Shown piece by piece: positions 26,822 to 62,853 of a DNA stretch of 64,000 bases. Position numbers and translations under genes: made by a program. A model generated the notes under the pieces. The model had not been told where the DNA came from and searched no databases. It was given only the letters and a program-made list of their open reading frames with translations. This DNA is from Polyangiales bacterium (lineage in GTDB: Bacteria; Myxococcota_A; Polyangia; Polyangiales; Ga0077539). Location: positions 192,001-256,000 of the forward strand of contig JBGARZ010000005.1 in assembly GCA_044229975.1 (NCBI GenBank). Reading direction: 5' to 3'. Numbering within the stretch: the stretch's first letter is position 1; each line of letters opens with the position of its first letter.

Positions 26822-27505
26822 TTACCCCAGGTGGATCTTCTCCCCCTTCACCTTCACGTCCTGCTCGGCCTTGATGACCGTGCGCCCGCTCATCAGATGC
26901 ATCGCCGCCCGCGCCACCACGCGCACCCGCCCCGCGCGCGTCTGCGCCAGCTCCTCGACCTCGCGGTAGACGTTCTTCGCGCGCTCGACCACGCGCGTCG
27001 CCTCGACTTCCACCACGCCGGCCACCTGCCGCACGCTCTCGGCCACCGTCGTCAGCGAGCGCACCACCAGCCGCGCCTCCCCCGCCCCCAGCTCGGCCCG
27101 CGGCGCCTTCGCGTCGATGCCCGCCGCGCCGACGATGACCTCGCTCTCGCCCGAGCGCACCACCACGCCGTCGCGCGCCACGATGGTCACCCGGCCGCCC
27201 GGCGCCTCCAGCGAGAGGTCGCCCTCCTCCACGCGCACCACGCGCTCTTCGGCGACGACCCGCAGCGCCCGCAGCACCGCCACCACGCACCAGCTCTCGT
27301 CGCGCATCGGCAGCGCCACCACGGCGTCGCCCGCGCGCAGCGTGCCCGCCCACGGCAGCGACACCTGCGCCGTCACCGCCTCGCCGCCCGCCTCCAACGT
27401 CAACCGCACCGCCCCGTCGGGCAGCGCCTCGGCCACCGTCGCGCGCTCACCGAAGGCAGCGCGCTCATCGGACACCGTCGGTCGCGCTTCAATGGACTTC
27501 TTCAT
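26822..27505 (-). CDS. DUF3540 family T6SS-tip-associated protein
   Basis: ERAKNVYREVEELAQTRAGRVR..G..VIKAEQDVKVKGEKIHLG C-terminus; SD GGGAGAG; sits in a VgrG locus. Confidence 0.82.
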   Translation of the reverse strand: MKKSIEARPTVSDERAAFGERATVAEALPDGAVRLTLEAGGEAVTAQVSLPWAGTLRAGDAVVALPMRDESWCVVAVLRALRVVAEERVVRVEEGDLSLEAPGGRVTIVARDGVVVRSGESEVIVGAAGIDAKAPRAELGAGEARLVVRSLTTVAESVRQVAGVVEVEATRVVERAKNVYREVEELAQTRAGRVRVVARAAMHLMSGRTVIKAEQDVKVKGEKIHLG

Positions 27506-27524
27506 CGGACACTCTCCCGACATC

Positions 27525-30500: not shown

Positions 30501-30845
30501 CCACTCACCGAGGTTGAGCTTCGTGTCTGGACTCGGAACCGCCATCAAGCGGTACTGCATCGGCCCCGTGGGCTTCGCGTCGGCCACCTGCTTGTGGTCG
30601 GTCTGGAAGTACCCCGCGATGCGCGACCCGATCTTCTGCATCCCGGTGCCCAGCTTCACCTGGGCCTCCTTCGCGGCCCTCTTCTCCGCCGCGGTGGGAG
30701 CCTTCGCCGCGGGCTTGGCGTCGCCCTTGGCCTTGGCCGCGTCGGGCGTGCTCGGCGGCAAGCCCTTCGGCGGGTCGGCCTTGCCCTGCGTGGCCGCGGC
30801 GACCGAGTAGTCCTTCGTCGGAACGGGCTTCTGTTCGTTGCTCAT
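27525..30845 (-). CDS. VgrG spike-like protein (T6SS_Vgr/DUF2345-like ends) with long Ala/Gly 11-mer repeat insertion
   Basis: TKLNLG..GFSVGT near the N-terminus; GAAQNAVGGAV-type repeats; DADGDGHVSMKE; beta-strand-rich C-terminus ending GVKIKGTKINIG. Confidence 0.65.
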   Translation of the reverse strand: MSNEQKPVPTKDYSVAAATQGKADPPKGLPPSTPDAAKAKGDAKPAAKAPTAAEKRAAKEAQVKLGTGMQKIGSRIAGYFQTDHKQVADAKPTGPMQYRLMAVPSPDTKLNLGEWVKNPGIADIGAAFGYPGFSVGTAANHFSNVGGTTVFQGTGDVTQQGGAKWTQFSQQWDASALKRISVTSGEAIMIGAGTTTLPSEFVKGIMIPTSGAALKPPVFDHSKLHDQILDHTSDSLNFVLKSTVSLSKSRRDLGLPMLPVPEVTIWQLLGLALHKAANKIQELKGKVGKIEAKLKEAEAKAKKANEWLKKNSDKVEASIDSFWSNMSTAAPWTGMMLNAAESARGVMDGALGLGAGGLPGGADLLAAFPSAAMPDVAGALGGGALAGLPDVLPGELPSLDDVLARPVGLGVDQIPGTSLIEQAQDAASRARSAAGGALDTARGMAQSAASTAQGVAGQAMGAVNEARSMAQGVVNQAQGVASGVASAARGAVNQVTSAAQSVSNAAQGAVNQVTSAASGVANAAQGAVSGVTNAAKGVGDAVSSAAQGVTRAAAGGIGGLPSTVASAVGGVTNVAGAAQNAVGAAQNAVGGAVGAAQNAVGGAVGAAQNAVGGAVGAAQNAVGAAQNAVGGAVGAARGAAGAVTGAASKVTGAMDSALKSAGGGGPASGLLGAVANKLGSPAYAPKIGKAMKDVTDAANKHFLSKQSATDAKGDPSERKIKELDWQKDGQQFITTTNQMLDEGERFVATCKEEYAKAQPHMDKLAELAQKAKDAKLDADGDGHVSMKEALAAMQGLTAGAAEALGALQGLCKMVSKMLNALAAALDNVAMNLLAGAGSGKLFLSAADNVEVGSSKKIHLYAAAGVDLDTDKGGFRAQTAKEIAFRTQDMGEFLSEKHLWLEGLKGAELTSKGPTVLASRQATAEVLGKTVRVGALESAATGRKKNDGDLGGGFAEAKQHATDLLHTLATDKTVLQVAGKSPDGDKPTLAQDTPFYLSADKDGKVEVHAKDGGHIRLQIGKYVLQLKDKEISLGLAGSATEDPKAKLIIHEDGNILLDTGHLIALENKGNRLGLNESDGAWLIPGSSTKLEMAKSGVKIKGTKINIG

Positions 30846-30858
30846 CGGTCTTCAGCCC

Positions 30859-32523
30859 TCACGCGTCGTCGTTGGTGTAGTCGACCACGCGGTTGCGGGT
30901 CTTGAAGCCACCCAGCGTCGCGTTGCGCGCCGTGATGGGCGTGATCTGATCGAAGTTCGGAACCGACCCCACGATGATCGGCCGATCGGGGTCGCCGTTG
31001 AGGTGCACCAGCAGCACCTCGGCGCCCTCGTGCAGCGGGTGATGCATCCCGTAGCCCGGCCCCGAGAAGGTCTGCACCATGCGAAAGCGCTTGAGCGTCA
31101 CGCTCGCGGCCGCCTTGCCCTCCACCATCGGCACATCCAACACGAGATGGTACTGCCCGTGGTCGTCGAGGTCGGCGGCCGAGCCCTTCACGCGATCGGC
31201 CACCTTCGCCGACAGCACGCCCGCCACCACCGGACGCGGCGTCACCCGCGGCGGGCGGTAGGTCACGTTCATGTTCTTGAGCACCAGCGACGCGACGAAG
31301 TCCTCGTTGGTGCCGCCGTCCCCGAGCGACACGCCCTCCTGCGTCACCGTGAAGCGCGCCTCGGTGACGTAGTAGCGGTGGCGCTTGTCGGCGCGCTCGT
31401 CGACCCACACGAGGTCGGGGTCGAAGTGGTTCTCCAGCGTGAGGATCATCCCCGAGAAGAGACCCAGCACCGTCGACTCGACGCGCAGGTCTTCCCGCTG
31501 CGCCGCGAGCTCCTGCGCGCGCACCTTGGCGAGCCGCTCGACCTGCGGCAGCACGTCGTCGGGCGGCGCGGGCTCCAGCGACGAGTACTCCTTGGCGGGC
31601 AGGTACTCGACGCGCGTTCCGATGCCGGAGTCGATGACCTCGGCGTTGGCGTGGGCGTCCATGGAGGCGCGCTTGTAGTCGTGGTCGACCACCGCGACGG
31701 TGCGCGGCAGCGCGCGAAACACCCGGTTGACGCTCTTGAAGCACGGCACCTTGTCGAGCACCCCGAGCCGCGGGTCGTAGCGGATGTGCTCGAAGCGCGT
31801 GTCGTCATCGGACTCCGCAAAGGCCTTCAGCGTCAGGTAGTCCTGCAACGCTTCGTTGTTGTCCGCAAAGACCACCCGCTCCAACGAGCTGGTCTGCTCG
31901 AAGAAGAAGAAGATCCCTTCGTGCTCGCAGAGCCGACACAGGAAGTCGAAATCGCTCTCCTGGTACTGGAGCAGGTACTCCCGCTTCATGTGCTCGCCGA
32001 TGACGCGGAACGAGTAGTCCTGGTCGAGGGTCATCCCGAGCTCGTCAAGAATCGAGGCCACCACCTCCGGCACGCTCATCCCCTGGAAGAGCCGCGTGCG
32101 CACCGACTGCGTCGTGAACCACAGCCGCGGAACCAGCTTCAACCGATACCGCACCGCCACGTCCCCGGAGTCGCCGTGCGCGCGGTCGATGGACAGCATC
32201 TCCAGCTCACGGATCACCCCGTAGAAGCTGTGCATCATCGCGCCGTGCACGGTGCCGTGATGGTCCTCGTCGGCGTCCTCGGACACCTCCTGGAGCAGCG
32301 TCACCATGTAGTGACCCGCGAGCAGCGCCTCGACCTTGTCGGCCGGGTACGGCGCGCCCACCAGCGACGACGCCTGCACCACCACGTCGAGCTCGTACAG
32401 CCGCGAGATCCGCTCGTGCCCCTTCACCTGGAGCACGTACCACTCGTCCATCACCCCGCCGCTCACGGGGTCTTCCCGCAACACCTGCGAGCGAATCCGA
32501 ACCACCGGCGAACCGAACTTCAT
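30859..32523 (-). CDS. vgrG: Type VI secretion tip protein VgrG, base only (554 aa)
   Basis: GHERISRLY, YRLKLVPRLW, RLFQGMSVPEVV, REYLLQYQESDFDFLCRLCEHEGIFFFF, YRPPRVTPRP, GMHHPL..GAEVL....GDPDRPIIVG. It stops at NDDA. Confidence 0.92.
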   Translation of the reverse strand: MKFGSPVVRIRSQVLREDPVSGGVMDEWYVLQVKGHERISRLYELDVVVQASSLVGAPYPADKVEALLAGHYMVTLLQEVSEDADEDHHGTVHGAMMHSFYGVIRELEMLSIDRAHGDSGDVAVRYRLKLVPRLWFTTQSVRTRLFQGMSVPEVVASILDELGMTLDQDYSFRVIGEHMKREYLLQYQESDFDFLCRLCEHEGIFFFFEQTSSLERVVFADNNEALQDYLTLKAFAESDDDTRFEHIRYDPRLGVLDKVPCFKSVNRVFRALPRTVAVVDHDYKRASMDAHANAEVIDSGIGTRVEYLPAKEYSSLEPAPPDDVLPQVERLAKVRAQELAAQREDLRVESTVLGLFSGMILTLENHFDPDLVWVDERADKRHRYYVTEARFTVTQEGVSLGDGGTNEDFVASLVLKNMNVTYRPPRVTPRPVVAGVLSAKVADRVKGSAADLDDHGQYHLVLDVPMVEGKAAASVTLKRFRMVQTFSGPGYGMHHPLHEGAEVLLVHLNGDPDRPIIVGSVPNFDQITPITARNATLGGFKTRNRVVDYTNDDA

Positions 32524-32542
32524 GGAGGTCGTCCTTCCCCTC

Positions 32543-32956
32543 TCAGCCGTTGATGAAGACCGTCGTCTGGCTCGGCGCCACCTGCGTCCCCGCCGGGACG
32601 TTGGCGTTGTTGCCGTTTTGCGGCGTCGTCTTCAGGTGCGTCACCACGTACTGACCTTCGACCAGCACCTTCTTCGACGCCATTTTGTACTTCGCCTTGT
32701 TCATGTTGACGTTGGAGATCACGCCCCCGAGCGTGCCCGGCTCGTCGCCGCTGCTCGTCGGAATCTCCGTGCCCTTGTGCAACACGGGTTGGTTCTTGAT
32801 CTTGACGTTCTTGGTGACCGTCGACCCGCTCGCGTTGGGACACATCGCGATGTTGGGAAACGGCACCGGGATGGGCGGCGCGGGCGGCGCCGGCACCTTG
32901 CACACGTCCGGAAACCCCATGCACTGCCCACCGCCCTTGGTCGACGCAGGAAACAT
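32543..32956 (-). CDS. DUF4150 PAAR-like protein
   Basis: FPDVCKVPAPPAPPIPVPFPN..SSGDEPG..GGVIS..S.KV.VEG..N..N...G..VAPSQT.V. Confidence 0.92.
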   Translation of the reverse strand: MFPASTKGGGQCMGFPDVCKVPAPPAPPIPVPFPNIAMCPNASGSTVTKNVKIKNQPVLHKGTEIPTSSGDEPGTLGGVISNVNMNKAKYKMASKKVLVEGQYVVTHLKTTPQNGNNANVPAGTQVAPSQTTVFING

Positions 32957-32960
32957 CGCG

Positions 32961-34781
32961 CTATCCCTCCGCGCTCGGTCGTTGTGCCTTGAAGTCTTCA
33001 GCCCCCGCCAGCGCCTCGTCGGTGCCCATCGCCCCCGACCGATCGGCGTCGGCGTACTCCGCCGTCGCATCGACGGTGCGATGAAAGCGCGCCCCGCGGA
33101 GATCACCCCCACCCCAACGCGTGCCCGACAGGTCGCTCTTCGACAGGTCGAGGTAGCGGCCCTTCACGTGCTCGAACGAGCTCCCACGCACGTCGGCCTC
33201 CACCATCTGCGCGCGCTCCAGGCGCGCCACCTCGAAGTGAGCGCTGTGCGCCTTCGTGCCCTCCCAGCGGGTGTCGCGCAGGTCGCTGCCGCGCAGGTCC
33301 CCCTGGTCGACGATCGCGCCCGAGAAGTCTGCGTGGCGGGCCTTCACCGCGCGCATCTTCACCTGCGTCATCGCCGCGCCGCGCAGGTCGGCGCGCACGA
33401 GTGACGCCTCGTCGAGCCGCGTCTCGGTGAGGTTGGCGCCGCGGAAGTCCGCGTCGGTGAAGTCCGCCTCCTTGAGGTTCATCCCGGCGAGCTTGCACCT
33501 CTGCATCGAGCACCGGACGAACACCGCCGCCCTCAAGCGACAACCCGTCAGGTCGAGCCCGTCGAGGTCAGCGCCCGTGAGGTCAGCGCCCGTGAGGTTG
33601 GCCCCCGCCACCGTCGCCCCCGTCCACGTCGTCTCCCCCGCATGAACATGTATCAGCCACGCCTCGGTGAGCTTCGCCTCGACGAGCTGCGCCCGCTCCA
33701 GCGTGGCGCCCTCCATGCGGCAGCGGCTCACGTCGGCCTTGGTGAAGTCCGCTTCGGTGAAGTCGACGCCCGCGAGGTCGCTCCCTGCCAGCGACGCCTC
33801 GCTGAAGTCGGTCATGGGCATCGACGCGCCCTGCCAACCCGTGCCTTCGAGCACGGCCTTCGCGAAGCTCGCCCCCTCGCCCTGCGCCCTGAAGAAGCGC
33901 GCCTCGGTGAAGTTCGCCCGGTCGAGCACCGCGCCCTTGAGCACCGCTCCCTCCAGCGAACACCGCTGCCCCTGCACCCGCGAGAGCGTCGCCTCGGTGA
34001 GCGTCGCGTCGACGAGCGCGGCAGCCTCCAGCACCGCGTCGGAGAGGTCGGCCCGCGTGAGCGTCGCACCCCGCAGCACCGCGTCGCGGAGGATGGCGCC
34101 CTGCAACCGCGCGCCCTCCATCGATGCGCCGGTGAAGTCGAGGCTGGTGAGGTCGAGGCCCGTGAGCTCGGCGTCGCGTAGTTGAGAGCCCGCGAGCGAG
34201 GCGCCCGTGAGCACGACGTCGCGCAGCGAAGCACCCGTGAGCACGGCGTACTTGAAGGTCGCGCGAGCCGCCGACACGCGGGTGAGCCGAGCGTCGGAGA
34301 GGTTGGCGTTGAAGAGGGCGGCGTCGTCGAGGAGGGTGTCCGTGAGCGTGGCGCGGGCGAGGCGCGCGTGCCGAAGCTGGGCGCGGGAGAGGTCGCACCC
34401 CGTGAGCGTGGCGCCCGAGAGGCGGGCGCCCTCGAAGAGAACACCCACGGCGTGACACTCGCGGAGGGACGCACCGCCGAGGTCGATGGCCCCCGCGTCG
34501 CAGGGCTCGTCGGGTCGCCCGAGGATGGCGCAGCGGGAGAGCGTGGCCTCGGTGAGCCGGCAGCCCTGGAGGTCGCACCCGCGGAAGACGACACCCGTGA
34601 GCGTCGCGCCGCCGAGGTCACATTGATAGAAGCGGCACGCCTCGAAGCGGACGTCGATGAGCGTCGCGTCGACGAAGGACTGTCCCTGGAGGTCGACCTC
34701 GCGGACGGAGACGTCGCGCAGCTCGCCGTGGTCGCGGAGGTGTTCGAGCACCGCGTCGAGCGATCGGAGGGTGACGGTCAC
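32961..34781 (-). CDS. Pentapeptide repeat protein
   Basis: A(D/N/T)(L/F)xx repeats throughout. GTG start overlaps the upstream TGA. Confidence 0.9.
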   Translation of the reverse strand: MTVTLRSLDAVLEHLRDHGELRDVSVREVDLQGQSFVDATLIDVRFEACRFYQCDLGGATLTGVVFRGCDLQGCRLTEATLSRCAILGRPDEPCDAGAIDLGGASLRECHAVGVLFEGARLSGATLTGCDLSRAQLRHARLARATLTDTLLDDAALFNANLSDARLTRVSAARATFKYAVLTGASLRDVVLTGASLAGSQLRDAELTGLDLTSLDFTGASMEGARLQGAILRDAVLRGATLTRADLSDAVLEAAALVDATLTEATLSRVQGQRCSLEGAVLKGAVLDRANFTEARFFRAQGEGASFAKAVLEGTGWQGASMPMTDFSEASLAGSDLAGVDFTEADFTKADVSRCRMEGATLERAQLVEAKLTEAWLIHVHAGETTWTGATVAGANLTGADLTGADLDGLDLTGCRLRAAVFVRCSMQRCKLAGMNLKEADFTDADFRGANLTETRLDEASLVRADLRGAAMTQVKMRAVKARHADFSGAIVDQGDLRGSDLRDTRWEGTKAHSAHFEVARLERAQMVEADVRGSSFEHVKGRYLDLSKSDLSGTRWGGGDLRGARFHRTVDATAEYADADRSGAMGTDEALAGAEDFKAQRPSAEG

Positions 34782-36865
34782 GTTCGTTCCAGCTTGGTTC
34801 GTTGCACGATGGCGAGGTCGAGGCGGGCGTTGTCGGTCTTCGCTCGATGAAACTCCGCCTCGAAGAGGTTGGCGCCGCGCAGGTCGCACCACGTCAGGTC
34901 GGCGCCCTCGAAGCGCCCTCGCATCAGGTCAGCCCGCTTCGCGCTCGCGCCCACGAGCCTCGCCTCGTCGAAGCAGCAGTCCCGTCCTACGCAGCCGTCG
35001 AGCGAGCACTTCACCATGTCGCAGCCGGTGAAGTCGGCGCGCTCCATCGTCGCGAAGGCCAGCGTCGCCTCGTCGAGCACGCTGCCCGCGAAGTTGGCCC
35101 GCCCGAGCTCCGCGTTGGCAAACGACGCGCGCGCGAAGCGACCGCCGTCGATGGCCCGCAGCCCCGTGGCCACGCAGCCCTCGAAGACGGCGGCCTCGGC
35201 GTTGGCGCCCGCGAGGGTCGCGTCCCGCAGCGTCGCCTTCTGGAAGCGCGCTCGCTCCATACGGGCCCCCGTAAAGTCGGCGCCGCTGAAGTCCCCTTCG
35301 CTGGCGTCGACGTCGCGCAGGTCGGCCTCGCGGTAGTCGGCCCCGGCGGACTTCGCCTGCGTGAGGTGCGCCGTGCGAAGAACGGCGTGCGCGAAGACCG
35401 TGTCGGCGAGGAAGGCCTCGTCGAGGGTGGCGCCCGTGAGGTCGGCGCGGGTGAGGTCGGCGCGCGAGAGCTTCGCGCGTTGGAGCGTGACCCCAGTGAG
35501 GTTGGCGCCCGTGAGGTCGGCCTCTTCGAGCACGGTGCGGTACAGCGTCGCGCCGGAGAGGTTGGCGCCCGCGAGGATCGACCCGCTGAAGTCGGCGCGG
35601 GAGAGGTCGAGGCCCGAGAGGTCGGCGCCCGTGAGGTCGAGGCCCGCGAGCGGCTCGCCGTGCGAGCGAAGGCGCAACACCTCGGCGCGATGAACGGCAC
35701 CAGGGCTCGGCGCCTCCGCGGGCGCATCAGCAGCGACCGGGAGAGCGGCCAGCGCCTCGGCGAGCACGATGTGCTGGGCCGGGAGCGGAGGGACTTCGTC
35801 GACGCCGTCTTCGGCGGCGCGCTCGGCTTCGAGGGCCGCGATGCGCGCGAGGCAGTCGGCGGTGGACTGCGGCGCGTCGAGAGGCTCCTGCAAGAGGGCG
35901 ACGCGGAGGATGTCGTCGAGGGAGTCGTCGGTGATGGGGGTGAGTCCGCGCCAGAGGCACATCACCTGTCGCGCGTCGGCGTCGAGGGTGATGGTGTCGA
36001 GGTTCATCCGGGCCTCGGTGACGACGTCGGCGTCGCCCACGCGGCGGGTGACGAAGCAGCGGACGCGCGTCGCGGGGAGACGCGAACGCAGCGTGGGAAG
36101 CGCGGGGTCCATCCCGGTGAGCTCGACGGGTTCGTCGCCGCGCCAGTAGCCGTCGATGCGCTGCGACGGAGGGGCGGCCTGGAAGTAGGTCGGATCGAAG
36201 TCCGTCGGGTACCAGGGCCAGCGGGTGCGCTTCCAGGTCTCGTCGTAGGTTCCGGTCAGGGCGGTGCGGGCGCGCCAGGTGCGTGGAATGGGGAAGGCTC
36301 CAGCGGGTGCGGGGCGGTCACCCGTCGAGCGGACGAGCGCGTCGGGGTCTTCGATGAGCGGCAGCGGGACGAGCGATCGGCCGTCGACGTCGACCGGGTC
36401 GAGGCCGCGGCCGACGGGGTTGTGGGGGGAGGATGATCCGCCGAAGGAGTGCTCCCATTGGAGGGTGAGCGTACGGAAGGGAGCGGGGTCGGTGGGTGCG
36501 CCCGCGCGATCGAAGTAGCGCGCGCCAAACACCATGAAGCGACGGTGGATCGCGCCCACACGGAAGGCGACGGCGGCGACGGTGGCCTCGCCGCCGGGCG
36601 CGTGACAGGTGCCTGCGAGGAGACACTCGCCGCGGGGTTTGAGCGACGCGAGGTCGGACTCGAAGCGGAGCGAGGGGTGGTCGCGCGTGGGGTCTTCGAA
36701 GGGCTCGTCGCCGGTGACGAGACGGGGCTCATCGGCGGGCGTGGCGACGCCGTCGGCGACGAGGTCGAAGGTGGACTTGACGACCAGGGTGAGCGCCCAT
36801 TGCGGTGGCTGGAGCTGCCACGCGAGGTGACCAAACGCGAAGGGAGTGTCGTTGAGGAGGTCCAC
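34778..36865 (-). CDS. DUF2169 T6SS chaperone fused to pentapeptide repeats
   Basis: N.TPF..LVVKSTF..ESDL..KP..FGG..NPVGRG..GTYD..W..RWP..P.DFD..YFQAAP..LDT, followed by ADLSG repeats. Confidence 0.92.
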   Translation of the reverse strand: MDLLNDTPFAFGHLAWQLQPPQWALTLVVKSTFDLVADGVATPADEPRLVTGDEPFEDPTRDHPSLRFESDLASLKPRGECLLAGTCHAPGGEATVAAVAFRVGAIHRRFMVFGARYFDRAGAPTDPAPFRTLTLQWEHSFGGSSSPHNPVGRGLDPVDVDGRSLVPLPLIEDPDALVRSTGDRPAPAGAFPIPRTWRARTALTGTYDETWKRTRWPWYPTDFDPTYFQAAPPSQRIDGYWRGDEPVELTGMDPALPTLRSRLPATRVRCFVTRRVGDADVVTEARMNLDTITLDADARQVMCLWRGLTPITDDSLDDILRVALLQEPLDAPQSTADCLARIAALEAERAAEDGVDEVPPLPAQHIVLAEALAALPVAADAPAEAPSPGAVHRAEVLRLRSHGEPLAGLDLTGADLSGLDLSRADFSGSILAGANLSGATLYRTVLEEADLTGANLTGVTLQRAKLSRADLTRADLTGATLDEAFLADTVFAHAVLRTAHLTQAKSAGADYREADLRDVDASEGDFSGADFTGARMERARFQKATLRDATLAGANAEAAVFEGCVATGLRAIDGGRFARASFANAELGRANFAGSVLDEATLAFATMERADFTGCDMVKCSLDGCVGRDCCFDEARLVGASAKRADLMRGRFEGADLTWCDLRGANLFEAEFHRAKTDNARLDLAIVQRTKLERT

Positions 36866-48783: not shown

Positions 48784-48892
48784 GGCGGGTTCTCGCCGCA
48801 TGCGATGCGGGACGGAGGGGTGCAGTGTCAAGCGCGGCACCGGACCCTGAGCTTCGGAGTAGGGGTCGTGACCACGCGAGGCGCTCGTCATC

Positions 48893-49027
48893 GGTCCTCA
48901 CAAGGGACCGGCGTTCATGAGAACGACGGAATCCAGAGCGACAGAACGCTCTTCGACGGGTGACCGAGACGTGGTGGGTTGCCCCGGATTCCGGCGTTCT
49001 CACGAACGCCGGTCCCTTGTGGGGACC
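48893..49027. repeat. REP-doublet-like palindrome with 50-bp imperfect arms
   Basis: 48893-48942 matches the reverse complement of 48978-49027. Internal hairpins are CCGGCGTTC..GAACGCCGG and GGTCCC..GGGACC. Confidence 0.8.
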
Positions 49028-49129
49028 AGCGACATGGCGGTCCTCATGTACGCCGCCAACACCTACTCCGAATCCAAGCCGGGCCGACGGACGAACCGGC
49101 GATCGACGGCGGCCCCGATGGACGGCGCG

Positions 49130-49167
49130 TTGACACCGCGAACGCCAACGCGGTGAGATCGCCGCCG
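49130..49167 (+). promoter_or_regulatory. Duplicated upstream element with TTGACA (copy 1)
   Basis: TTGACA starts 38 nt before ATG 49168. A homologous copy lies at 51300-51337. Confidence 0.45.
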
Positions 49168-51303
49168 ATGCGCCCGTGGGGATGGACACTTGCGCTGCTG
49201 ATGGGCTGCATGCGGGCGCACCCGATGGCGTCCGCGACCGCACCGACGCCACCGACGCCACCGACAACCGCATCGCCTGCCTTCAGTTGTCGCGGACCAG
49301 CGCCTCCGCCCATCCCTGCGCGGCCGCGCCACTCACCCTCGCCGCCGGGTCGGCTCGTGATCCAGCGGCTCGCACTCCCTTCCGCGACACCTCGCGCGCG
49401 CACGGAGGGAGAGCCGACCCTGCCCTTCGCGGGTCTGCGTCTGCGCGTCGTCGCCGAGAACACCCCCCTCCCGCGCTTCGCCGCGGCCCTCGCGGAGGCG
49501 ATCGGCTTCGGGGTGATGGTTCCGCTCGACGCGTACGACCTCCAGGTGACGGTCGCCTCGCCCGATGTGAGCGTCGACGATCTGCTCAGGACGCTGCGGT
49601 TCGTCGGCGTGCGACACCGCCTCGACGCCCACGACCCGCACCGACCGCCGCGGCCCGACGAGGGACAGCACGGTATCGACGCCGAAGGAGTGCTCCGCCT
49701 GGACGCCGCGGAGACGCTCGCCGCCGCGGCCGTCCGCGCCGTCCACGCGGACCGGTACAACACCACGCGGCGAGTGTTCGCGCCGCGCGCGGGCCTACGC
49801 TTCGCGGAGGTCGCCCGGTACTACTGCGACCGGCTGGCGTCGCCCTTCGGGGCCGCCGACGTCGTGGAGGGGCGCCTCATCGTGACCGACCTCGCGCCCC
49901 GCATCGAACAGGCCGAAGGGCTGTTGCACTCGCTCGAAACCCACGACGCGCCCGCGACGCCAACGCCGCCGTTCAGTTGTGGCAACCCCCCGCGGGTGTC
50001 CCCGCTCTCGTCCGAGCTCGACGCCGTCCCGCTCTTCGCGCGACCGCCCGATCCGCCCGCTGGGAGCCTCGTCGTCCAGCGGTTGCCGGGTCCGCTCGGC
50101 GCCCTCCTTCCGCGAGAGCAGAGCGAACCTCCGCCGGCATCGTACGCGGGCGTACGACTGCGGGTCGCGGCGGAGGCCGTCCCCCTCTGGCGCTTCGCGC
50201 AGGCGCTGTCGGAGACGCTGCGGATCACGGTCGCGGTCGCGCCCGGGAGCCTCGACGAGACGGTGACGCTCGCCTGGCCCGACGTGACCGCCGAGCGATT
50301 GCTCCGCGTGCTGCCGGACGTCGAAGGCATCGGAGACGCGCTCGTCCTGGGCGACGGCTCCGACTACCACGCCCGGCGCAACCTGGTGGAAGGCCCCCCG
50401 CCCGCCGAGGAGACGCGGGCGTACTCGGTGCCCGCGGCGGTCCCGCCGGAGCTTGCGGCGCGGCTCTACTGCGAGCTGGACGGACCCGGGGGTGGCACCG
50501 CCGACGTCGTCGCCGGGCGGCTCGTGGTACGCAACTACGGGTGGTCAGCCGACCGCATCGAGGACGACCTTCGACGGCTCGCGGAGTTCGTCACCCAGCG
50601 TCACCGCGAGGAGAGACCGCTCTTCACCTGCCACGGGCCGCCCGAGCCCCCGCGGCCCACGCCGCCTCCATCGACCCTCCCCCTCCCCGCGCCGGGAAGA
50701 CTCATCGTCCAGCGGCTCCCGCTGCCGCCGGCGGTCGCGCAGCCGAGCGAGCACACCGATCGATCCCGGTACGAAGACCCGACGCCGTTGCCCTTCGGGG
50801 GCGTGCGACTGCGGATCGTCGCGGAGGGCGCCCCGCTCCGTCGCGTGGCGGTGGCGCTGTCGGAAGCGCTGCGAATGGGCGTCGTGTCGGGGGGAGACTG
50901 GCCCGAGCTGCCCGTGACCATCACCTCGTCGGACATCACCGTCGACCAGCTCTTCCCCGCCCTGGAGCACATCGGCGTGTTCGTCACCTTCCGAGAAAGC
51001 CTCGGCCTCCTGACCCTGGTGTCGCGCGAGCCGATCGGCTCACCGGTGGTCCGGATTCGCGGGTTCCACGACCCCATCATCGCCGAGACTCGCCTGATTC
51101 CCGTGGACCCCGGCGTGTCCGAAGAGGCGGTGGCGCGACACTACTGCGAGCGCCTGGCGTCCCCCATCGGCGCGGCCGCGTCGATCGGCGGCCTGCTGAT
51201 CGTGCACGACTACGGTGATGTGCTGAGCCGCGCCGAGCTCCTCGTCCGCGAGCTGGCGTCGCCGACCGCTCCCTCCGGCGATGCGGGTGCCGCCGCGCGT
51301 TGA
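49168..51303 (+). CDS. Lipoprotein with three secretin N0(STN)+N1(NolW-like) modules, no barrel
   Basis: Lipobox LMGC; 3x [F(S/T)C..PG.L.(I/V)QRL..(F/Y).G.RLR..AE..PL.R.A.AL.E..VT....DV..YC..G.L.V]. Confidence 0.7.
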   Translation: MRPWGWTLALLMGCMRAHPMASATAPTPPTPPTTASPAFSCRGPAPPPIPARPRHSPSPPGRLVIQRLALPSATPRARTEGEPTLPFAGLRLRVVAENTPLPRFAAALAEAIGFGVMVPLDAYDLQVTVASPDVSVDDLLRTLRFVGVRHRLDAHDPHRPPRPDEGQHGIDAEGVLRLDAAETLAAAAVRAVHADRYNTTRRVFAPRAGLRFAEVARYYCDRLASPFGAADVVEGRLIVTDLAPRIEQAEGLLHSLETHDAPATPTPPFSCGNPPRVSPLSSELDAVPLFARPPDPPAGSLVVQRLPGPLGALLPREQSEPPPASYAGVRLRVAAEAVPLWRFAQALSETLRITVAVAPGSLDETVTLAWPDVTAERLLRVLPDVEGIGDALVLGDGSDYHARRNLVEGPPPAEETRAYSVPAAVPPELAARLYCELDGPGGGTADVVAGRLVVRNYGWSADRIEDDLRRLAEFVTQRHREERPLFTCHGPPEPPRPTPPPSTLPLPAPGRLIVQRLPLPPAVAQPSEHTDRSRYEDPTPLPFGGVRLRIVAEGAPLRRVAVALSEALRMGVVSGGDWPELPVTITSSDITVDQLFPALEHIGVFVTFRESLGLLTLVSREPIGSPVVRIRGFHDPIIAETRLIPVDPGVSEEAVARHYCERLASPIGAAASIGGLLIVHDYGDVLSRAELLVRELASPTAPSGDAGAAAR

Positions 51304-51337
51304 CAGCGCGAACGTCGGCGCGGTGTGATCGGCGTCG
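51300..51337 (+). promoter_or_regulatory. Duplicated upstream element with TTGACA (copy 2)
   Basis: TTGACAGCGCGAACGTCGGCGCGGTGTGATCGGCGTCG-ATG has the same geometry as copy 1. The upstream gene's TGA lies inside TTGACA. Confidence 0.45.
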
Positions 51338-52081
51338 ATGCATCCCCGGGGATGGACCCTCGCGTTGCTCGTGGGCTGCACCCGTACGCTGCCGGTCGCG
51401 CCGACCCCCGCGCCCGCCGCCTCACCGCCGTACTTCAGTTGCCGCGGCCCCGCGTCGCCACCCGTCGTCACGCGCGCGCATCATCCGCCCGCGCCGCCGG
51501 GTCGGCTCGTGGTCCAGCGGCTCGCCCCCCCGCCCGGAACACCCCGCGCCCGTGAAGAGCACGACGACCCGCCGCTGCCCTTCGCGGGCGTGCGCCTGCG
51601 GGTGGTCGCCGAAAACGCCCCGATCGCACGCTTCGCGGCCGCCCTCGCGGAGGCGCTCGGCGTCGCGGTGATCGTGCCTCTCGACGCGCACGACCTCCAG
51701 GTGACGGTCTCGTCGCCCGACGTGACCGTCGACGATCTGCTCCGTCTGCTGCCGCTCGTCGGCGTCCAGCACGAGCTCTCCCCCAGGGGGTTGCTCCGCC
51801 TCGCAGCGACGGAGACGCTCAGCGAGGTGATCGCCCGCAACGAGTGGAGGAACGATCTCCGCACCGCGCGGCGGGTGTTCGCCCCGCGCGCGGGGGTGCC
51901 CTTCGCGGAAATCGCCCGGCACTACTGCGACCATCTCGCATCGACCCACGGGACCGCCGACGTCGTCGACGGGCGCCTCGTCGTGCACGACTTCGAGACG
52001 TACATCGAGAGCGTCGAGCGGCTGCTGCGGGCGTTCGAGTCGCGTGGCGCGTCGCAGGTGCGGCTGGGCGGCCGACCGTGA
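51338..52081 (+). CDS. Lipoprotein with one secretin N0+N1-like module
   Basis: Lipobox LVGC; close paralog of module 1 of the upstream gene. Confidence 0.7.
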   Translation: MHPRGWTLALLVGCTRTLPVAPTPAPAASPPYFSCRGPASPPVVTRAHHPPAPPGRLVVQRLAPPPGTPRAREEHDDPPLPFAGVRLRVVAENAPIARFAAALAEALGVAVIVPLDAHDLQVTVSSPDVTVDDLLRLLPLVGVQHELSPRGLLRLAATETLSEVIARNEWRNDLRTARRVFAPRAGVPFAEIARHYCDHLASTHGTADVVDGRLVVHDFETYIESVERLLRAFESRGASQVRLGGRP

Positions 52082-53565
52082 CGCCCCGACGACCGCGCGT
52101 CGGCGGATGGCTCCTCGCGTTGCTCGTAGGCTGCGCGCGACCCACGCCCGTCACCGTGACGCCCGCGCCCGCGACGCCGCCGTCCTTCAGTTGTCGGGGC
52201 AGCGGCAGGGCATCCATCTTCCGCCCCGCGCCTGTCCCACCGCCTCGTTTCGAGCGCCCGCCCGTCCCCGCGCCGGGGCGGCTCGTCGTCGAGCAGCTGC
52301 CGGGCCCGCCCGGTGCTCTCCTGCCGCGCGGCGAGGGCGAGCCACCGGCTCCGGTGTATGCGCGCGTGCGGCTGCGAATCGTGGCCGACGCGGTTCCGCT
52401 CCCGCGCGTCGCGGCGGCGCTCTCCGAAGCGCTCCGGGTCACCATCGCGGTCGCGCCCGAGGGCCTCGACGACGTCGTGTCCATCGTGTGGCCCGACGTG
52501 ACCGCCGAGCGCCTCTTCGAAGAGCTGCGCGGACGACGCAGCCGCGACGACGGGATCGTCCTGGGCGCCGACGAGTCTCACCTCGTCGAGCGCCCGCGGC
52601 GCAGCGAGCCCGACCTCTTCGAGACGCGGACCATGCAGACGGAACTCCCGTTGCCGCCTGAGCAGGCCGCGCGAATCTTCTGCGAGCAGGTCTCGTCCGA
52701 ACGGGGCGGCGCCGACGTGATCGCGGGCCGCCTCGTCGTGCACGACTACGAGCTGTCGGTCCGCCACTTCGAGGCCCTGCTCCAAGGCATCGCCGCGCTC
52801 CCGACGTCGCCCGACCGAGGTCCGACGACGCCGTTTGGCTGCCACGCCCCGGCGCCGCCGACCGCGCCGCCTGCCGCGCTCCGGCCGCTCCCTGTGCCCG
52901 GCGGAGTCGTGATCCAGCGCCTCCCGCTGCCACCAGCGGAGGCGGAGCGTCGCGAACCGCGCGCCCTGTCCCGGGAACCCGAACCGCCACTGCCCTTCGG
53001 CGGCGTGCGCCTGCGGGTGGTCGCCGAGAACGCTCCGCTGCGGCGCCTCGCGGTGGCGCTGTCGGACGCGCTGCACGTGGGCGTCGCGGCGGACGGAGAG
53101 TGGCCCGACCTGCCGGTGGCGATCGCTTCGCGTGACGTGACCGCCGACCGGCTCTTCTTCGCGCTGGAGCAGGTCGGCGTCGCCGTCGATTTCGACGAGC
53201 GCCTCGGGTTGCTTCAACTGCGCGCGTGGGAGCCGGTCGGCGAACCAGTGGTCCGGGTGCACGGACACCCACGATTCCGTGACTACGGCACCCGCGTGAT
53301 CGCCCTGCGTCGCGAGGCGTCAGGAGAGGCGGTCGCGCGCTACTACTGCGAGCGCATCGCCTCCGAGATCGGGTTGGTCGAGGTGCTCCGCGGCGGGCTC
53401 CTCGTGCGCGACTACGGAACGCAGTTGAGGAACATCGAGGCCTTCGTCGGATCGCTCGCGCCGCCCCCCACGACCCCGACGGCTCTTCCTGCCGACGCCG
53501 GGGTCACCGCGCCGCCCGAGCCCATCCGACCGCGCGATACGGTCACCCTCTCGGGACGTCGATGA
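52078..53565 (+). CDS. Lipoprotein with two secretin N0+N1-like modules
   Basis: GTGA overlap; lipobox LVGC; modules resemble modules 2 and 3 of 49168-51303. Confidence 0.7.
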   Translation: MTPRRPRVGGWLLALLVGCARPTPVTVTPAPATPPSFSCRGSGRASIFRPAPVPPPRFERPPVPAPGRLVVEQLPGPPGALLPRGEGEPPAPVYARVRLRIVADAVPLPRVAAALSEALRVTIAVAPEGLDDVVSIVWPDVTAERLFEELRGRRSRDDGIVLGADESHLVERPRRSEPDLFETRTMQTELPLPPEQAARIFCEQVSSERGGADVIAGRLVVHDYELSVRHFEALLQGIAALPTSPDRGPTTPFGCHAPAPPTAPPAALRPLPVPGGVVIQRLPLPPAEAERREPRALSREPEPPLPFGGVRLRVVAENAPLRRLAVALSDALHVGVAADGEWPDLPVAIASRDVTADRLFFALEQVGVAVDFDERLGLLQLRAWEPVGEPVVRVHGHPRFRDYGTRVIALRREASGEAVARYYCERIASEIGLVEVLRGGLLVRDYGTQLRNIEAFVGSLAPPPTTPTALPADAGVTAPPEPIRPRDTVTLSGRR

Positions 53566-53576
53566 CGCCCGTCTGA

Positions 53577-54818
53577 CTACCCTCTACGAACGGCCCGCCC
53601 GCGACGCCGCGTCCACGCCAACGCGATCGCCGCCAGCACCGAACCCCACCCGGCGCCACCACCACTCGCACCGATCGTGCGGCACCCGCAGTCGCCACGG
53701 AGATCACCACCGAGGCCGCCGTCGATGCCGATCGTCGAGCTGTCGTCCGCCGCCACATCAACGACGCGCGCATCCCGAACGCCTAGGTCGTTGACCACGC
53801 CCGCGTCGTCTTCGATGGGTGCGCCCGCGTCGACGATCACCCCCGCATCCACCGTCGGCATCGGCGCCACGCAGCCCGTCGGAGTGCACGTCCTCCCCCC
53901 CGTCGCGCAGTCCTCCGACACCGGGCGCGTGCCGTCGCAGCGCACGAAGCGCGATCCCTCGCAGCGTGGCCCCGGCAGCAACGCCCGGCCCGACGCCGGA
54001 TCACACCGCAGGCAGTTGAAGCCCTCGGTGTCGTTCTGCCAGGCGCACACTCCTCCGCGGCCGAGGCACTCGGCCTCCATGGGCGCGCCGTCCATGCACC
54101 AGCGCAGCGTCTCGCCCTCGCAGCGCCCGCGGTAGTCGAGCGCGCCGCAGCTCGGGCCCGCCACGCGGGCGTACGCCTCGTTGCCGTAGGCGGCGGGTTG
54201 AATCCACTGGATGGTCACGCCACGGCACACCGACTGGCACCCCGGCGCATCGACGAAGGTCGACGACACCACCGACGCCCGAACATACGCCGGCGTCGGG
54301 CACCCCGGGTCGACCGGTCCGCCGCAGTAGTTGCGCGTCGTCGCGAGGTGCAGATGCAGATGTGCCCCGACGCCGCCCGTGTTGCCCGACAACCCGATGC
54401 GCGTTGTCGTGGTGACCGACGCGCCCACCGCCACGTCGATGCGCGACAGGTGCATGTACGTCACGAAGTACGTCGCGCCGAGGCCCGGCACGGTGCTGCC
54501 GTCGTGACGCACGCGCACCCACAGACCCGCGTTGCCGTAGTCCGCGGTGCGCGCGTCGTTGGGGTTGACCGCGTCCACCACGCCCGGCGCCACGGCGTAG
54601 AGGGCGGTGCCCACGCCCATCGCGACGTCGTAGCCGTTGTGCGTTCCGCAGCCCTCGCGGCCGCCGCAATAGGTGATGTAGTCGCCGTAGTAGCCCTGCG
54701 TGAGCCGCGCCCGCGCCGCGGTGCCGCGGTCGACCGGCCAGTGCATCCACCCTTGGGCCTGGGCCTCGGCGCCCGCGAGCAGAACGGCGACGGCGAGAGC
54801 AACGGTCGAACGAGGCAT
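53577..54818 (-). CDS. M23 metallopeptidase with Cys-rich repeats and MYXO-CTERM-like tail
   Basis: Signal peptide ending AQA; HNGYD, YMHL, SGNTG..HLHL; tail CGCRTIG..GWGSVLAAIALAWTRRR. Confidence 0.9.
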   Translation of the reverse strand: MPRSTVALAVAVLLAGAEAQAQGWMHWPVDRGTAARARLTQGYYGDYITYCGGREGCGTHNGYDVAMGVGTALYAVAPGVVDAVNPNDARTADYGNAGLWVRVRHDGSTVPGLGATYFVTYMHLSRIDVAVGASVTTTTRIGLSGNTGGVGAHLHLHLATTRNYCGGPVDPGCPTPAYVRASVVSSTFVDAPGCQSVCRGVTIQWIQPAAYGNEAYARVAGPSCGALDYRGRCEGETLRWCMDGAPMEAECLGRGGVCAWQNDTEGFNCLRCDPASGRALLPGPRCEGSRFVRCDGTRPVSEDCATGGRTCTPTGCVAPMPTVDAGVIVDAGAPIEDDAGVVNDLGVRDARVVDVAADDSSTIGIDGGLGGDLRGDCGCRTIGASGGGAGWGSVLAAIALAWTRRRGRAVRRG

Positions 54819-54918
54819 CGACGGACCATACCGCGGAGTGGTTGCGAGAGCGGCAACCTGGGGTTGAGCGAACCGCCGGTGCCCGAAGCCCCGGAGGCGA
54901 CGTACGATGCCCTCCATC

Positions 54919-60805: not shown

Positions 60806-61837
60806 CTACCGCGGAGCGTCGACGGCAGGGCCGCCGTCGCGGTCCATCGGAGAGACCACCGACTCGCAGAACGCACCGGGTCGCACGGCGCCAAGCCGCA
60901 TCACGGTGCTGCTCAGCGCGCATCGTGTGCCCTGGTCACGGCAGTCGACGTCCGACGCGCATCGTCGACGACACTGCGCCGCGTAGCACTCGAACAGCTC
61001 GGGCAGATCGCCCGGCAGCACGCAGTCCGTCGACACCGCGCACGCCCGCGGCCGCGACGGCACCGCGCCGACATAGAACGCCTCCGCCACGCTGGTCGCC
61101 ACGACCCGCCCCCCGCGGATCGCATACACGAACCACCAGTACTGCCCGGTCGGCAGCGTGTCGCCACCCCACGGCGGACCGAAGGCACCGTCGCGCGAGA
61201 CGCCCCGATGACCGAAGCGAACGGGCACCGTCCCGTCGACCGCACGACCATCACCCAGGGTGTTGCCCGGCTCCGCCGTCGACCACGCCCAGGTCACCGC
61301 CGACCAGTTGCTGATGCGACCGCGCGCAGGATCGAACGATGGCGGCTGTCGCGACACCATCGCCACCGTGATGGCGTCCGCGGCGCCCCGCAGCGGCTGC
61401 CAGCGGAAGGAGAATCCCGTCGTCGGGAAGAGCTCGGTGTCCTGCGTCGGACCTTCGAGCTCGATGCGCCCCTCCACTGGAAACACCGCCCGCGACGGCG
61501 GTTGAAACGAACACCGCCCGCGACCATCGGGCGCCACCGTCGACAGGTCACAGCGCGCATCGGGGTAGCACTGACCTTCGATGGGGGCCTCGGGGTCGCA
61601 GGTTCCGAGCGGGGGCGTGCAGTAGCCGACGGGGTTGCCGCCCACGCGAACGCAGACCTCGTTGCGCGAGCGGCAGTCCGTCGTGCGCTGACATTCTTCC
61701 CTCGCCCCGGCGTCGATGCTCGCGTCGAGCTCGGGGAGGTTGCTCACGCCCCTGTTAGCGTCGGCGCAGGCCGCGAGGCACCACGCACCAAGCGCCACCA
61801 CGAGGCCGGAGAGCAGCACGCTGTAGCTACGGTTCAT
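60806..61837 (-). CDS. Cys-containing lipoprotein, tandem copy B
   Basis: Lipobox LAAC; core near-identical to 61834-62853. Confidence 0.8.
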   Translation of the reverse strand: MNRSYSVLLSGLVVALGAWCLAACADANRGVSNLPELDASIDAGAREECQRTTDCRSRNEVCVRVGGNPVGYCTPPLGTCDPEAPIEGQCYPDARCDLSTVAPDGRGRCSFQPPSRAVFPVEGRIELEGPTQDTELFPTTGFSFRWQPLRGAADAITVAMVSRQPPSFDPARGRISNWSAVTWAWSTAEPGNTLGDGRAVDGTVPVRFGHRGVSRDGAFGPPWGGDTLPTGQYWWFVYAIRGGRVVATSVAEAFYVGAVPSRPRACAVSTDCVLPGDLPELFECYAAQCRRRCASDVDCRDQGTRCALSSTVMRLGAVRPGAFCESVVSPMDRDGGPAVDAPR

Positions 61838-62853
61838 CGCGGCGCATCGACGGCAGGTCCGCCGTCACGGTCAATCGGGGTGACCACCGTCTCGCAGAAC
61901 GCACCGGGTCGCACGGCGCCAAGCCGCATCACGGTGCCGCTCAGCGCGCATCGTGTGCCCTGGTCGCGGCAGTCGACGTCCGACGCGCATCGCCGACGGC
62001 ACTGCGCCGCGTAGCACTCGAACAGCTCGGGCAGGTCGCCCGGCAGCACACAGTCCGTCGACGCCGCGCACGCCAGCGGCCGCGACGGCGTCGCCCCCAC
62101 GACGAACGCCTGCGCCACGCTCGTGGCGATCACCCGCCCCCCGCGGATCGCATACACGAACCACCAGTACGACCCCGCTGGCAGCGTGTCGCTCTCCCAC
62201 GCCGGACCGAAGGCACCGTCTCGCGAGACGCCCCGATGACCGAAGCGCACCGGCACGGTCCCATCGACCGCGCGACCGTCGCCGAGGGTGTTGCCCGGCT
62301 CCGCCGTCGACCACGCCCAGGTCACCGCCGACCAGTTGCTGATGCGCCCACGCGCCGGATCGAACGACGGCGGTTGTCGCGACACCATCGCCACCATCAC
62401 CACGTCGCCACCGTCCCGCAGCGGCTGCCAGCGGAAGGAGAAGCCCGTCGTCGGGAAGAGCTCGGTGTCCTGCGTCGGACCTTCGAGCTCGATGCGCCCC
62501 TCCACCGGAAACACCGCCCGCGACGGCGGCTGAAACGAACATCGCCCGCGACCATCGGGCGCCACCGTCGACAGGTCGCAGCGCGCGTCGGGGTAGCACT
62601 GCCCCTCGATCGGAGCCTCCGGGTCGCAGGTCCCCGATGGCACCTCGCAGAAGGCGTTGATGCCATCGCGGCGCATGCACACCTCGTTGCGCGAGTCGCA
62701 GTCCGCCGTGCGGTTGCAGCGCTCCCCGACCGTCGCCCCCGCGTCCACCGCAGGACTGGGAAGGCTGGTCGCAGCGTCGCTCCCACACGCCAGGAGCAGC
62801 CACGACCCAAGCACCAGCGCGAGGGTGGACAGCAGCGGGCGGACGGCGTTCAT
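61834..62853 (-). CDS. Cys-containing lipoprotein, tandem copy A
   Basis: Lipobox LLAC; ATGA overlaps on both sides. Confidence 0.8.
   Translation of the reverse strand: MNAVRPLLSTLALVLGSWLLLACGSDAATSLPSPAVDAGATVGERCNRTADCDSRNEVCMRRDGINAFCEVPSGTCDPEAPIEGQCYPDARCDLSTVAPDGRGRCSFQPPSRAVFPVEGRIELEGPTQDTELFPTTGFSFRWQPLRDGGDVVMVAMVSRQPPSFDPARGRISNWSAVTWAWSTAEPGNTLGDGRAVDGTVPVRFGHRGVSRDGAFGPAWESDTLPAGSYWWFVYAIRGGRVIATSVAQAFVVGATPSRPLACAASTDCVLPGDLPELFECYAAQCRRRCASDVDCRDQGTRCALSGTVMRLGAVRPGAFCETVVTPIDRDGGPAVDAPR

Follow-up and report, generated by a model that had tools for sequence, protein, structure and literature searches.

A tandem array of three genes for predicted lipoproteins lies at positions 49168 to 53565 of a 64,000-nucleotide stretch of a Polyangiales bacterium genome (assembly GCA_044229975.1, contig JBGARZ010000005.1, positions 192,001 to 256,000; hereafter the window). 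The proteins belong to a real family of short, barrel-less relatives of the secretin PilQ and are not decayed secretin fragments. Judged by sequence profiles and predicted structure, each of their six modules is a PilQ-type N0-helix-N1 unit derived from PilQ. The new element is an arm strand that is predicted to sit at the position of the DotD lid, on a remodelled PilP-binding face. Three roles had been offered in a first-pass annotation made from the sequence alone (secretin modulators or decoys, ring scaffolds, or signalling adaptors), and among these a ring scaffold or secretin modulator is our best guess. The genes, their modules (borders set by cutting at the F-x-C motif) and the element preceding them are as follows:

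49168..51303 (+), gene 1: predicted lipoprotein of 711 amino acids (aa), modules A-B-C, lipobox Cys14 (codon at 49207)
49282..49971 (+), module A1 (gene 1): Cys codons 49288 and 49825; 63% identity to A2
49972..50622 (+), module B1 (gene 1): Cys codons 49978 and 50470; 49% identity to B3
50623..51300 (+), module C1 (gene 1): Cys codons 50629 and 51145; 54% identity to C3
51338..52081 (+), gene 2: predicted lipoprotein of 247 aa, one type-A module, lipobox Cys14 (codon 51377); the protein used for the structural model
51434..52078 (+), module A2 (gene 2): Cys codons 51440 and 51926
52078..53565 (+), gene 3: predicted lipoprotein of 495 aa, modules B-C, lipobox Cys19 (codon at 52132)
52186..52833 (+), module B3 (gene 3): Cys codons 52192 and 52681
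52834..53562 (+), module C3 (gene 3): Cys codons 52840 and 53347
49125..49167 (+), second copy 51295-51337: duplicated upstream element preceding genes 1 and 2, with TTGACA in a short hairpin

The arrangement of 3+1+2 modules with a lipobox on each gene, as read in the first-pass annotation, was borne out by the open reading frames (ORFs), by the splitting at F-x-C and by the lipobox Cys residues. The modules are 215-243 aa long with a mutual identity of 33-63%, and pair into three types (A/A 63%, B/B 49%, C/C 54%), giving the order A-B-C, A, B-C. Besides the lipobox Cys, exactly two Cys are found in each of the six, in agreement with the conserved pair noted earlier. The motifs that had been quoted as a module consensus proved to be those of single modules (module 2 of gene 1 for N0, module 3 of gene 1 for N1), but the likeness to N0 and N1 that they were quoted for stood. 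Gene 3 starts with a GTG that overlaps the stop of gene 2, and the approximately 45 bases before gene 1 and before gene 2 are duplicates which mark the duplication unit; neither a full sigma-70 promoter match nor a terminator match was found. As the signal peptide of gene 3 is homologous to those of the other two genes and the sequence at the A-B junction of gene 1 is similar to that immediately preceding module B in gene 3, it is likely that an [A][B-C] gene pair was duplicated, with the first copy fused in frame to give gene 1. The reading frames are intact, with a GC content at third codon positions (GC3) of 0.86-0.90. The ratios of nonsynonymous to synonymous substitution (dN/dS) between paralogues came to 0.58, 0.60 and 0.82 in a simple count. 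As dS is easily underestimated in this way at such GC, the ratios may be taken as weak evidence of constraint. No further copy of the module was found by tblastn in the 10-Mb, 93% complete genome.

A search of 1.84 billion representative sequences (expectation value, E, up to 1e-3) returned 122 matches, from which P0080, P0085 and P0119 (no domain under the family profile) and P0120 (a double STN protein) were left out of the counts. The first-pass annotation had held that homologs which were normally full secretins would mean decay; instead, 118 of the 122 are short, barrel-less relatives, two of the matches (P0004, P0007) being the window's own proteins. Most family members are 190-330 aa in length, and 15/122 have two or three modules. 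The secretin beta-barrel domain (PF00263) had no Pfam match in the window proteins, whose C-termini lie within ~35 residues of N1, and the absence of a secretin C-domain noted previously was thereby upheld. None was found in the other family members either, with tails too short to hold one except in the unannotated P0118; the longest tails are of 200, 145 and 96 aa, the longest having no Pfam match. P0118 itself consists of two modules followed by an unannotated C-terminal domain of 200 aa. Apart from the proteins of the window itself, word-indexed protein searches returned P0107 and P0127 alone; no full-length relative emerged from the search for longer proteins, which is weak evidence.

The source names of 30 members were looked up and read 'hypothetical protein' or were absent, save for one automatic GspD/PulD label. 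The named source organisms are Myxococcales, Polyangiaceae and Deltaproteobacteria metagenome-assembled genomes, so the range of the family would appear to be myxobacterial. In a FastTree phylogeny with PilQ as sole outgroup the family forms one clade (support 0.87), within which the window's six modules cluster with P0008, P0127, P0009 and P0010 (0.997). Multi-module proteins are scattered on this tree, although its deep nodes are weak, and this scatter points to repeated independent fusion. The expansion by module shuffling that had been proposed thus holds, as repeated tandem duplication and fusion. The family is apparently undescribed, as had also been suggested: no description was found in the literature within reach, which took in few subscription papers and no supplements. 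Barrel-less N0 lipoproteins as such do have precedents, DotD and the VirB7 of Xanthomonas, which the first-pass annotation omitted.

With regard to fold and ancestry, the three proteins had no match in Pfam or NCBIfam, and searches of the PDB with a single sequence and with the six-module profile gave nothing meaningful. A feature search of the ESM Atlas provided a lead to STN and Secretin_N clusters (0.88-0.91). Using the six-module profile, close single-module relatives were detected in 2/40 related genomes, and PilQ N0-N1 more weakly in others. At 20 loci read past N1, all 20 continue into the start of a secretin, with ten more of the 30 giving no match at the threshold and being left unclassed. 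A 92-member family profile matched the PilQ of the same genome (E 1.2e-13) and did not match its GspD; it also reached HofQ, XcpQ and Vibrio cholerae PilQ in the PDB (2e-6 to 1e-5), which the smaller queries did not. HHalign of the family to the PilQ of a relative gave a probability of 96.6 over 155 columns. The modules are 19-26% identical to the genome's own PilQ and have the motifs P-L-E-T-R-L-I-P-V and S-x-R-G in common with it, and Secretin_N was seen below the cut-off in 6/92 family members.

A structure of gene 2 was predicted using AlphaFold2 with the 92-member family alignment (mean predicted local distance difference test, pLDDT, 86; predicted template modelling score, pTM, 0.61), from which the following elements were assigned:

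51434..51445 (+), F-x-C strand, gene 2 residues 33-36: ordered, with a block pLDDT of 93; predicted to form a disulfide with N1 Cys197
51503..51523 (+), lid-like strand, gene 2 residues 56-62: G-R-L-x-V; from the model and structural alignment to DotD
51581..51826 (+), putative N0 domain, gene 2 ~residues 82-163: structural matches to PilQ N0 and EscC
51857..52051 (+), putative N1 (N3-like ring-building) domain, gene 2 ~residues 174-238: preceded by linker helix 158-173

Foldseek ranked PilQ first for this model. On structural alignment with VIA-align the predicted N0 was closest to PilQ N0 (Z 9.0 and 8.9), followed by EscC (Z 8.5, root-mean-square deviation, rmsd, 2.3), and the predicted N1 matched Pseudomonas aeruginosa PilQ 6ve2 (Z 6.7, rmsd 2.2, 57 aligned) and GspD N1 (Z 6.9). 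Helix 158-173 joins the two domains in the model; a helix from N0 to the next domain is described for PilQ and not for type II (T2SS) or type III secretion system secretins in the accessible text of PMC7545093. The PilQ-like N0+N1 identity first proposed from motifs is therefore borne out by profile, language-model features and predicted fold.

The region ahead of N0 had been described as a Pro-rich arm. An arm is indeed present, but it holds two conserved strands that are ordered in the model, F-x-C (33-36) and G-R-L-x-V (56-62). Across the family the N1 Cys is found in 131/133 modules covering the site and the arm Cys in 102/110, and no Cys occurs in the N0-N1 regions of 21 PilQs, which are the best profile matches and not a random sample. 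In P0122 and P0125 (the latter in two repeats, and with three cluster members) N0 has been lost and the F-x-C arm is kept together with the N1 Cys, which ties the Cys pair to N1. We infer a disulfide between arm Cys and N1 Cys that staples the arm to this domain.

The second arm strand is matched by DotD. Structural alignment of model residues 57-163 with DotD 37-161 (Z 8.6, rmsd 2.8, 89 aligned) starts by pairing model residue 57 with DotD residue 37, the first of the lid, and DotD 37-42 is described as a lid, joined to beta1 and covering a cleft that in secretins is filled by bulky residues (passages of PMC2951367). The arm strand of the family is accordingly predicted by the model to sit at the DotD lid position, on the PilP-binding face of N0. 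At the end of beta1, all 21 PilQs have L/I/F/V, whereas 84% of the family have Ala, and at the groove position of alpha1 the Leu of 21/21 PilQs is replaced by Ala or Gly in 87% of the family. This shrinkage of the groove to small residues matches the description of DotD versus secretins in the same passages.

A lipobox-like Cys is present in 72/121 family records by a simple motif rule alone, and most records that lack it start within the arm or module. At the +2 position of the 72, Lys is not found and Asp occurs once. For Myxococcus xanthus lipoproteins, Lys at +2 has been associated with the inner membrane and Ala at +7 with the extracellular matrix (excerpts of PMC3222651); since the three window proteins have neither, anchoring in the outer membrane would be the default expectation. 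Between lipid Cys and arm Cys there is a median of 17 residues (range 9-38, n=59), and between arm Cys and lid one of 22 (range 17-83, n=67). N1 would accordingly lie close to the membrane, with N0 further inside the periplasm, as in PilQ.

As to function, the reading that we tentatively favor is that of an outer-membrane-anchored accessory module which has retained the ring-building surface of N1 and undergoes sideways assembly, either by itself or on a secretin of the host. The N-terminal lipid would anchor the modules in the outer membrane, and the arm, disulfide-stapled to N1, would cap N0 by way of the lid strand, so that N1 would be held to the membrane by lipid and staple in place of the barrel. 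The modules would probably associate laterally via this surface of N1 and form an arc or collar that has no barrel, either among themselves or on the host's own secretin ring, and would serve as accessory modulators of the host secretin channel. A propensity for rings is supported by the N3-type domains being ring-building motifs with a hydrophobic interface (in part of PMC6155069), by the hydrophobic positions of N1 beta1, beta3 and alpha2 being retained in the family, by the self-assembly of isolated, barrel-less XcpQ N-domains into rings (as reported in sections of PMC5646246) and by the arm-to-N0 oligomerisation of Xanthomonas VirB7 (in portions of PMC3093366). Repeated tandem fusion suits subunits working in series, and so counts for assembly. 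A more far-reaching version, which we consider doubtful, would have the modules as mobile, host-encoded secretin mimics, with lipid and disulfide standing in for the barrel. Through an exchange of arm strands, neighbouring modules would join, perhaps covalently, to give rings without a pore, or would enter the rings of PilQ. Pilus channels would thereby be shut or tuned, for example as a measure against phages that depend on pili or against competing cells, and the A-B-C fusions would be pre-linked ring segments.

A number of observations weigh against sideways assembly. N0 and N1 of the model superpose on secretins separately but not jointly (whole-model TM ~0.25, rmsd 9-19 Å), so the ring geometry may differ from that of secretins, the hinge being uncertain at this pTM. 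The D-x-R-T-N hairpin of PilQ N1 occurs in 0/135 modules versus 21/21 PilQs, the rings of XcpQ required N2 (same sections of PMC5646246), and the retained hydrophobic positions of N1 could be buried by the arm rather than by a neighbour. The genomic context offers no partner: no pilus, T2SS or Tad families were found among the 27 other window ORFs scanned (21.9-62.9 kb), in keeping with the first-pass annotation, and no pilus, T2SS, type IV secretion system (T4SS), Tad, FecR or extracytoplasmic function (ECF) sigma factor families at nine other loci, where 63 of ~90 called neighbour ORFs were scanned and four loci were short or at a contig edge. Structural subunits are usually conserved and co-located, unlike this family, whose members are divergent (relatives are 18-36% identical to gene 2), rare (in a search of the order with E up to 1e-19, at least 7/401 genomes and 0/8 congeners) and, in this lineage, accessory.

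The accessory state of the three genes was seen in contigs from two runs (X1, X2) of one study, with flanks ~94-95% identical to the window, which join window position 48833 to 54840 via 25 other letters and so reveal a related strain without the three genes and the adjacent M23 peptidase gene. The features of this site are:

48834..54839 (unstranded), accessory 6-kb block: three lipoprotein genes and the M23 peptidase gene; absent from related-strain contigs
48893..49027 within 48846-49078 (unstranded), dispersed inverted-repeat element, similar to a miniature inverted-repeat transposable element or a repetitive extragenic palindrome: 50-nucleotide arms, 88% complementary; left edge of the block

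A near full copy of the inverted-repeat element lies at C20:448459-448660, and at least seven further contigs carry partial copies; the element had no match in Rfam. A 194-base piece of gene 3 was found, identical and at low depth, in another run. In the congeners carrying both flanking genes these are on different contigs in 7/8. In a sample of the phylum the family is present in at least 5/401 genomes (E below 1e-25); all such counts are lower bounds, with seven candidates scored per genome. Two genomes of one genus (G019, G503) carry members from distant clades in unrelated contexts, and the nine other loci have no shared neighbourhood. The window's own genome has three secretins, encoded on other contigs within pil, gsp and Tad-like clusters, with an intact pilMNOPQ operon, and each of nine other carrier genomes (9/9) keeps at least two full secretins.

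Much of this distribution would also suit a quite different use of the modules, namely the secretin fold reused as a self-contained, disulfide-stabilised binding protein, monomeric or as beads on a string, in the periplasm or at the surface, with roles for example in conflict (immunity, receptor decoy) or adhesion and with no ring or secretin partner. We regard this main rival as unlikely, while deserving serious consideration. The orphan context and patchiness, the tandem paralogue array within an accessory block, the fast divergence with paralogue dN/dS of 0.58-0.82, the distant-clade members in one genus (G019, G503) and the VgrG/PAAR cluster ~12 kb upstream are all consistent with it, as is the alteration of both partner-binding features of PilQ, the PilP face and the D-x-R-T-N hairpin. 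Tandem lipoproteins may be typical of immunity arrays. However, an effector or toxin family was found beside none of the ten loci scanned, and the modules have no family-wide hypervariable insertion for ligand binding. It appears highly improbable that the modules act as decoys, drawing PilP (or GspC) away from the true secretin and thereby lowering pilus assembly. PilP does bind PilQ N0 (portions of PMC3441751), and the secretin genes of carriers and the window genome's pilMNOPQ operon are intact. PilP and GspC, however, bind N0 at beta1/alpha1 by strand addition (portions of PMC3441751 and PMC3169554), whereas in the family small residues have taken over this face and the lid strand of the protein itself is predicted to lie there; a simple PilP decoy, one form of the decoy role in the first-pass annotation, is therefore unlikely.

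We give slightly less credence still to an accessory ring layer of another envelope machine, of the kind that DotD and Xanthomonas VirB7 form in type IV secretion systems. The anatomy of lipid, arm, lid and N0 is the same, but no TrbI/VirB10 domain was found in the 93% complete genome, in which Dot/Icm-type families were not searched separately, and the window and nine loci scanned have no T4SS neighbours. Equally poor are the prospects of a signalling adaptor in which N0 contacts an anti-sigma factor like the STN of TonB-dependent transducers. The predicted fold does match the signalling domains of FecA, PupA and PupB (Z 5.4-7.0) and a TonB-dependent receptor lies ~6 kb from one locus, yet the sequence ancestry points to PilQ N0-N1 and not to STN, and the earlier proposal gained no support from context, FecR and ECF sigma families being absent from both the 63 neighbour and 27 window ORFs. 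Decayed or mis-assembled secretin fragments were rejected and are barely credible: the paralogue dN/dS is not far below 1 and members are rare, but the 118 short, barrel-less relatives share the Cys pair and arm, new invariant features missing from PilQ, and end soon after N1. Moreover, the genes have their own signal peptides, intact frames and a GC3 of 0.86-0.90, and a 194-base piece of gene 3 is identical in another run.

Several other features were observed around the array and elsewhere in the genome. The M23 peptidase gene (window 53577-54818, -), which the related strain lacks along with the three lipoprotein genes, is single-copy and encodes a secreted protein with Cys-rich repeats and a C-terminal tail which we take to resemble a myxobacterial sorting tag. 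A cluster ~12 kb upstream (window 26822-36865, -) has DUF2169/pentapeptide, pentapeptide, PAAR-like, VgrG-like (Phage_GPD) and DUF3540 genes and a gene for a 1106 aa protein without a Pfam match. Another tandem pair (window 60806-62853, -) encodes Cys-rich, closely related predicted lipoproteins of 343 and 339 aa, with no Pfam match. At L053:1402-2466 (G013) a sterol methyltransferase-family gene lies directly upstream of a family member. Recurring neighbours were rejected as background: MopE-motif proteins (4/9 loci; 76 to at least 150 matches per genome), MauG-type peroxidases (2/9 loci; 4-9 per genome) and pirin (the window and 1/9 loci). The genome's own PilQ frame (G000:C32:545257-546849, -) is 530 aa long and seemingly without AMIN domains, and short PilQ frames (531-600 aa) are found in other genomes of the same family, compared to 729-980 aa in neighbouring families. 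A link between the modules and AMIN-less PilQ was rejected, since the secretin frames of carriers from other families are long and of PilQ size. The genome also encodes another barrel-less derivative, unrelated to the array, at G000:C38:637276-637785 (-), between an ABC-F gene and a PAS sensor; this 169 aa predicted lipoprotein has a single PilQ-like N0 stretch with no N1 or barrel.

The printed precedents that we found for barrel-less secretin N-domains, DotD and Xanthomonas VirB7, are of a single N0 within type IV secretion operons. The present family differs from them in being a two-domain unit derived, by our profiles and model, from PilQ, with its own predicted clamp, free of operons, thinly spread in myxobacteria-like genomes and repeatedly multiplied. 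Its modules offer a small, soluble test of ring formation by PilQ N0-N1 without the barrel, and it is a candidate endogenous regulator of secretin channels. Were it a plain monomeric binder, it would still be a channel fragment turned into a new family, missed by Pfam, NCBIfam and current annotation.

When compared to known systems, the modules most resemble PilQ N0-N1(N3) (Neisseria meningitidis 4AR0/4AV2, V. cholerae 6W6M, P. aeruginosa 6VE2), the best match in sequence and structure, with both folds and the linker helix shared. Unlike PilQ, the family lacks a secretin barrel and the D-x-R-T-N hairpin, has a remodelled PilP face, lies outside the pil operon, and consists of lipoproteins, some in tandem repeats, with an arm bearing two strands and the Cys pair. 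BfpB, the lipoprotein secretin of a type IVb pilus (9U5S), has its lipid joined to a distal N0 by a linker past the N3 ring (parts of PMC12531336), the topology that we infer for the family; it keeps the barrel and is the channel, whereas the family combines a lipobox with no barrel. The STN of TonB-dependent transducers is fused to a TonB-dependent barrel and has FecR/ECF neighbours, neither of which was found for the window family. Xanthomonas VirB7 (XAC2622) is likewise a lipoprotein with a flexible arm and N0 (fold match Z 5.8, 6gyb) and forms a head-to-tail oligomer through the arm (portions of PMC3093366), but it needs VirB9 and the virB operon, has no N1, and is not described with a family-wide disulfide in those portions. 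Legionella DotD (3ADY, type IVB secretion system) is a barrel-less lipoprotein with N0 and a lid on beta1 over a small-residue cleft (passages of PMC2951367), as in the family; it has N0 alone and is a component of the Dot/Icm core, whereas the family adds N1 and the Cys pair, is PilQ-derived by profile and has no T4SS context. The family is thus not a secretin, having no barrel, and is neither DotD nor VirB7, given the presence of N1 and the lack of a T4SS, though its build is DotD-like.

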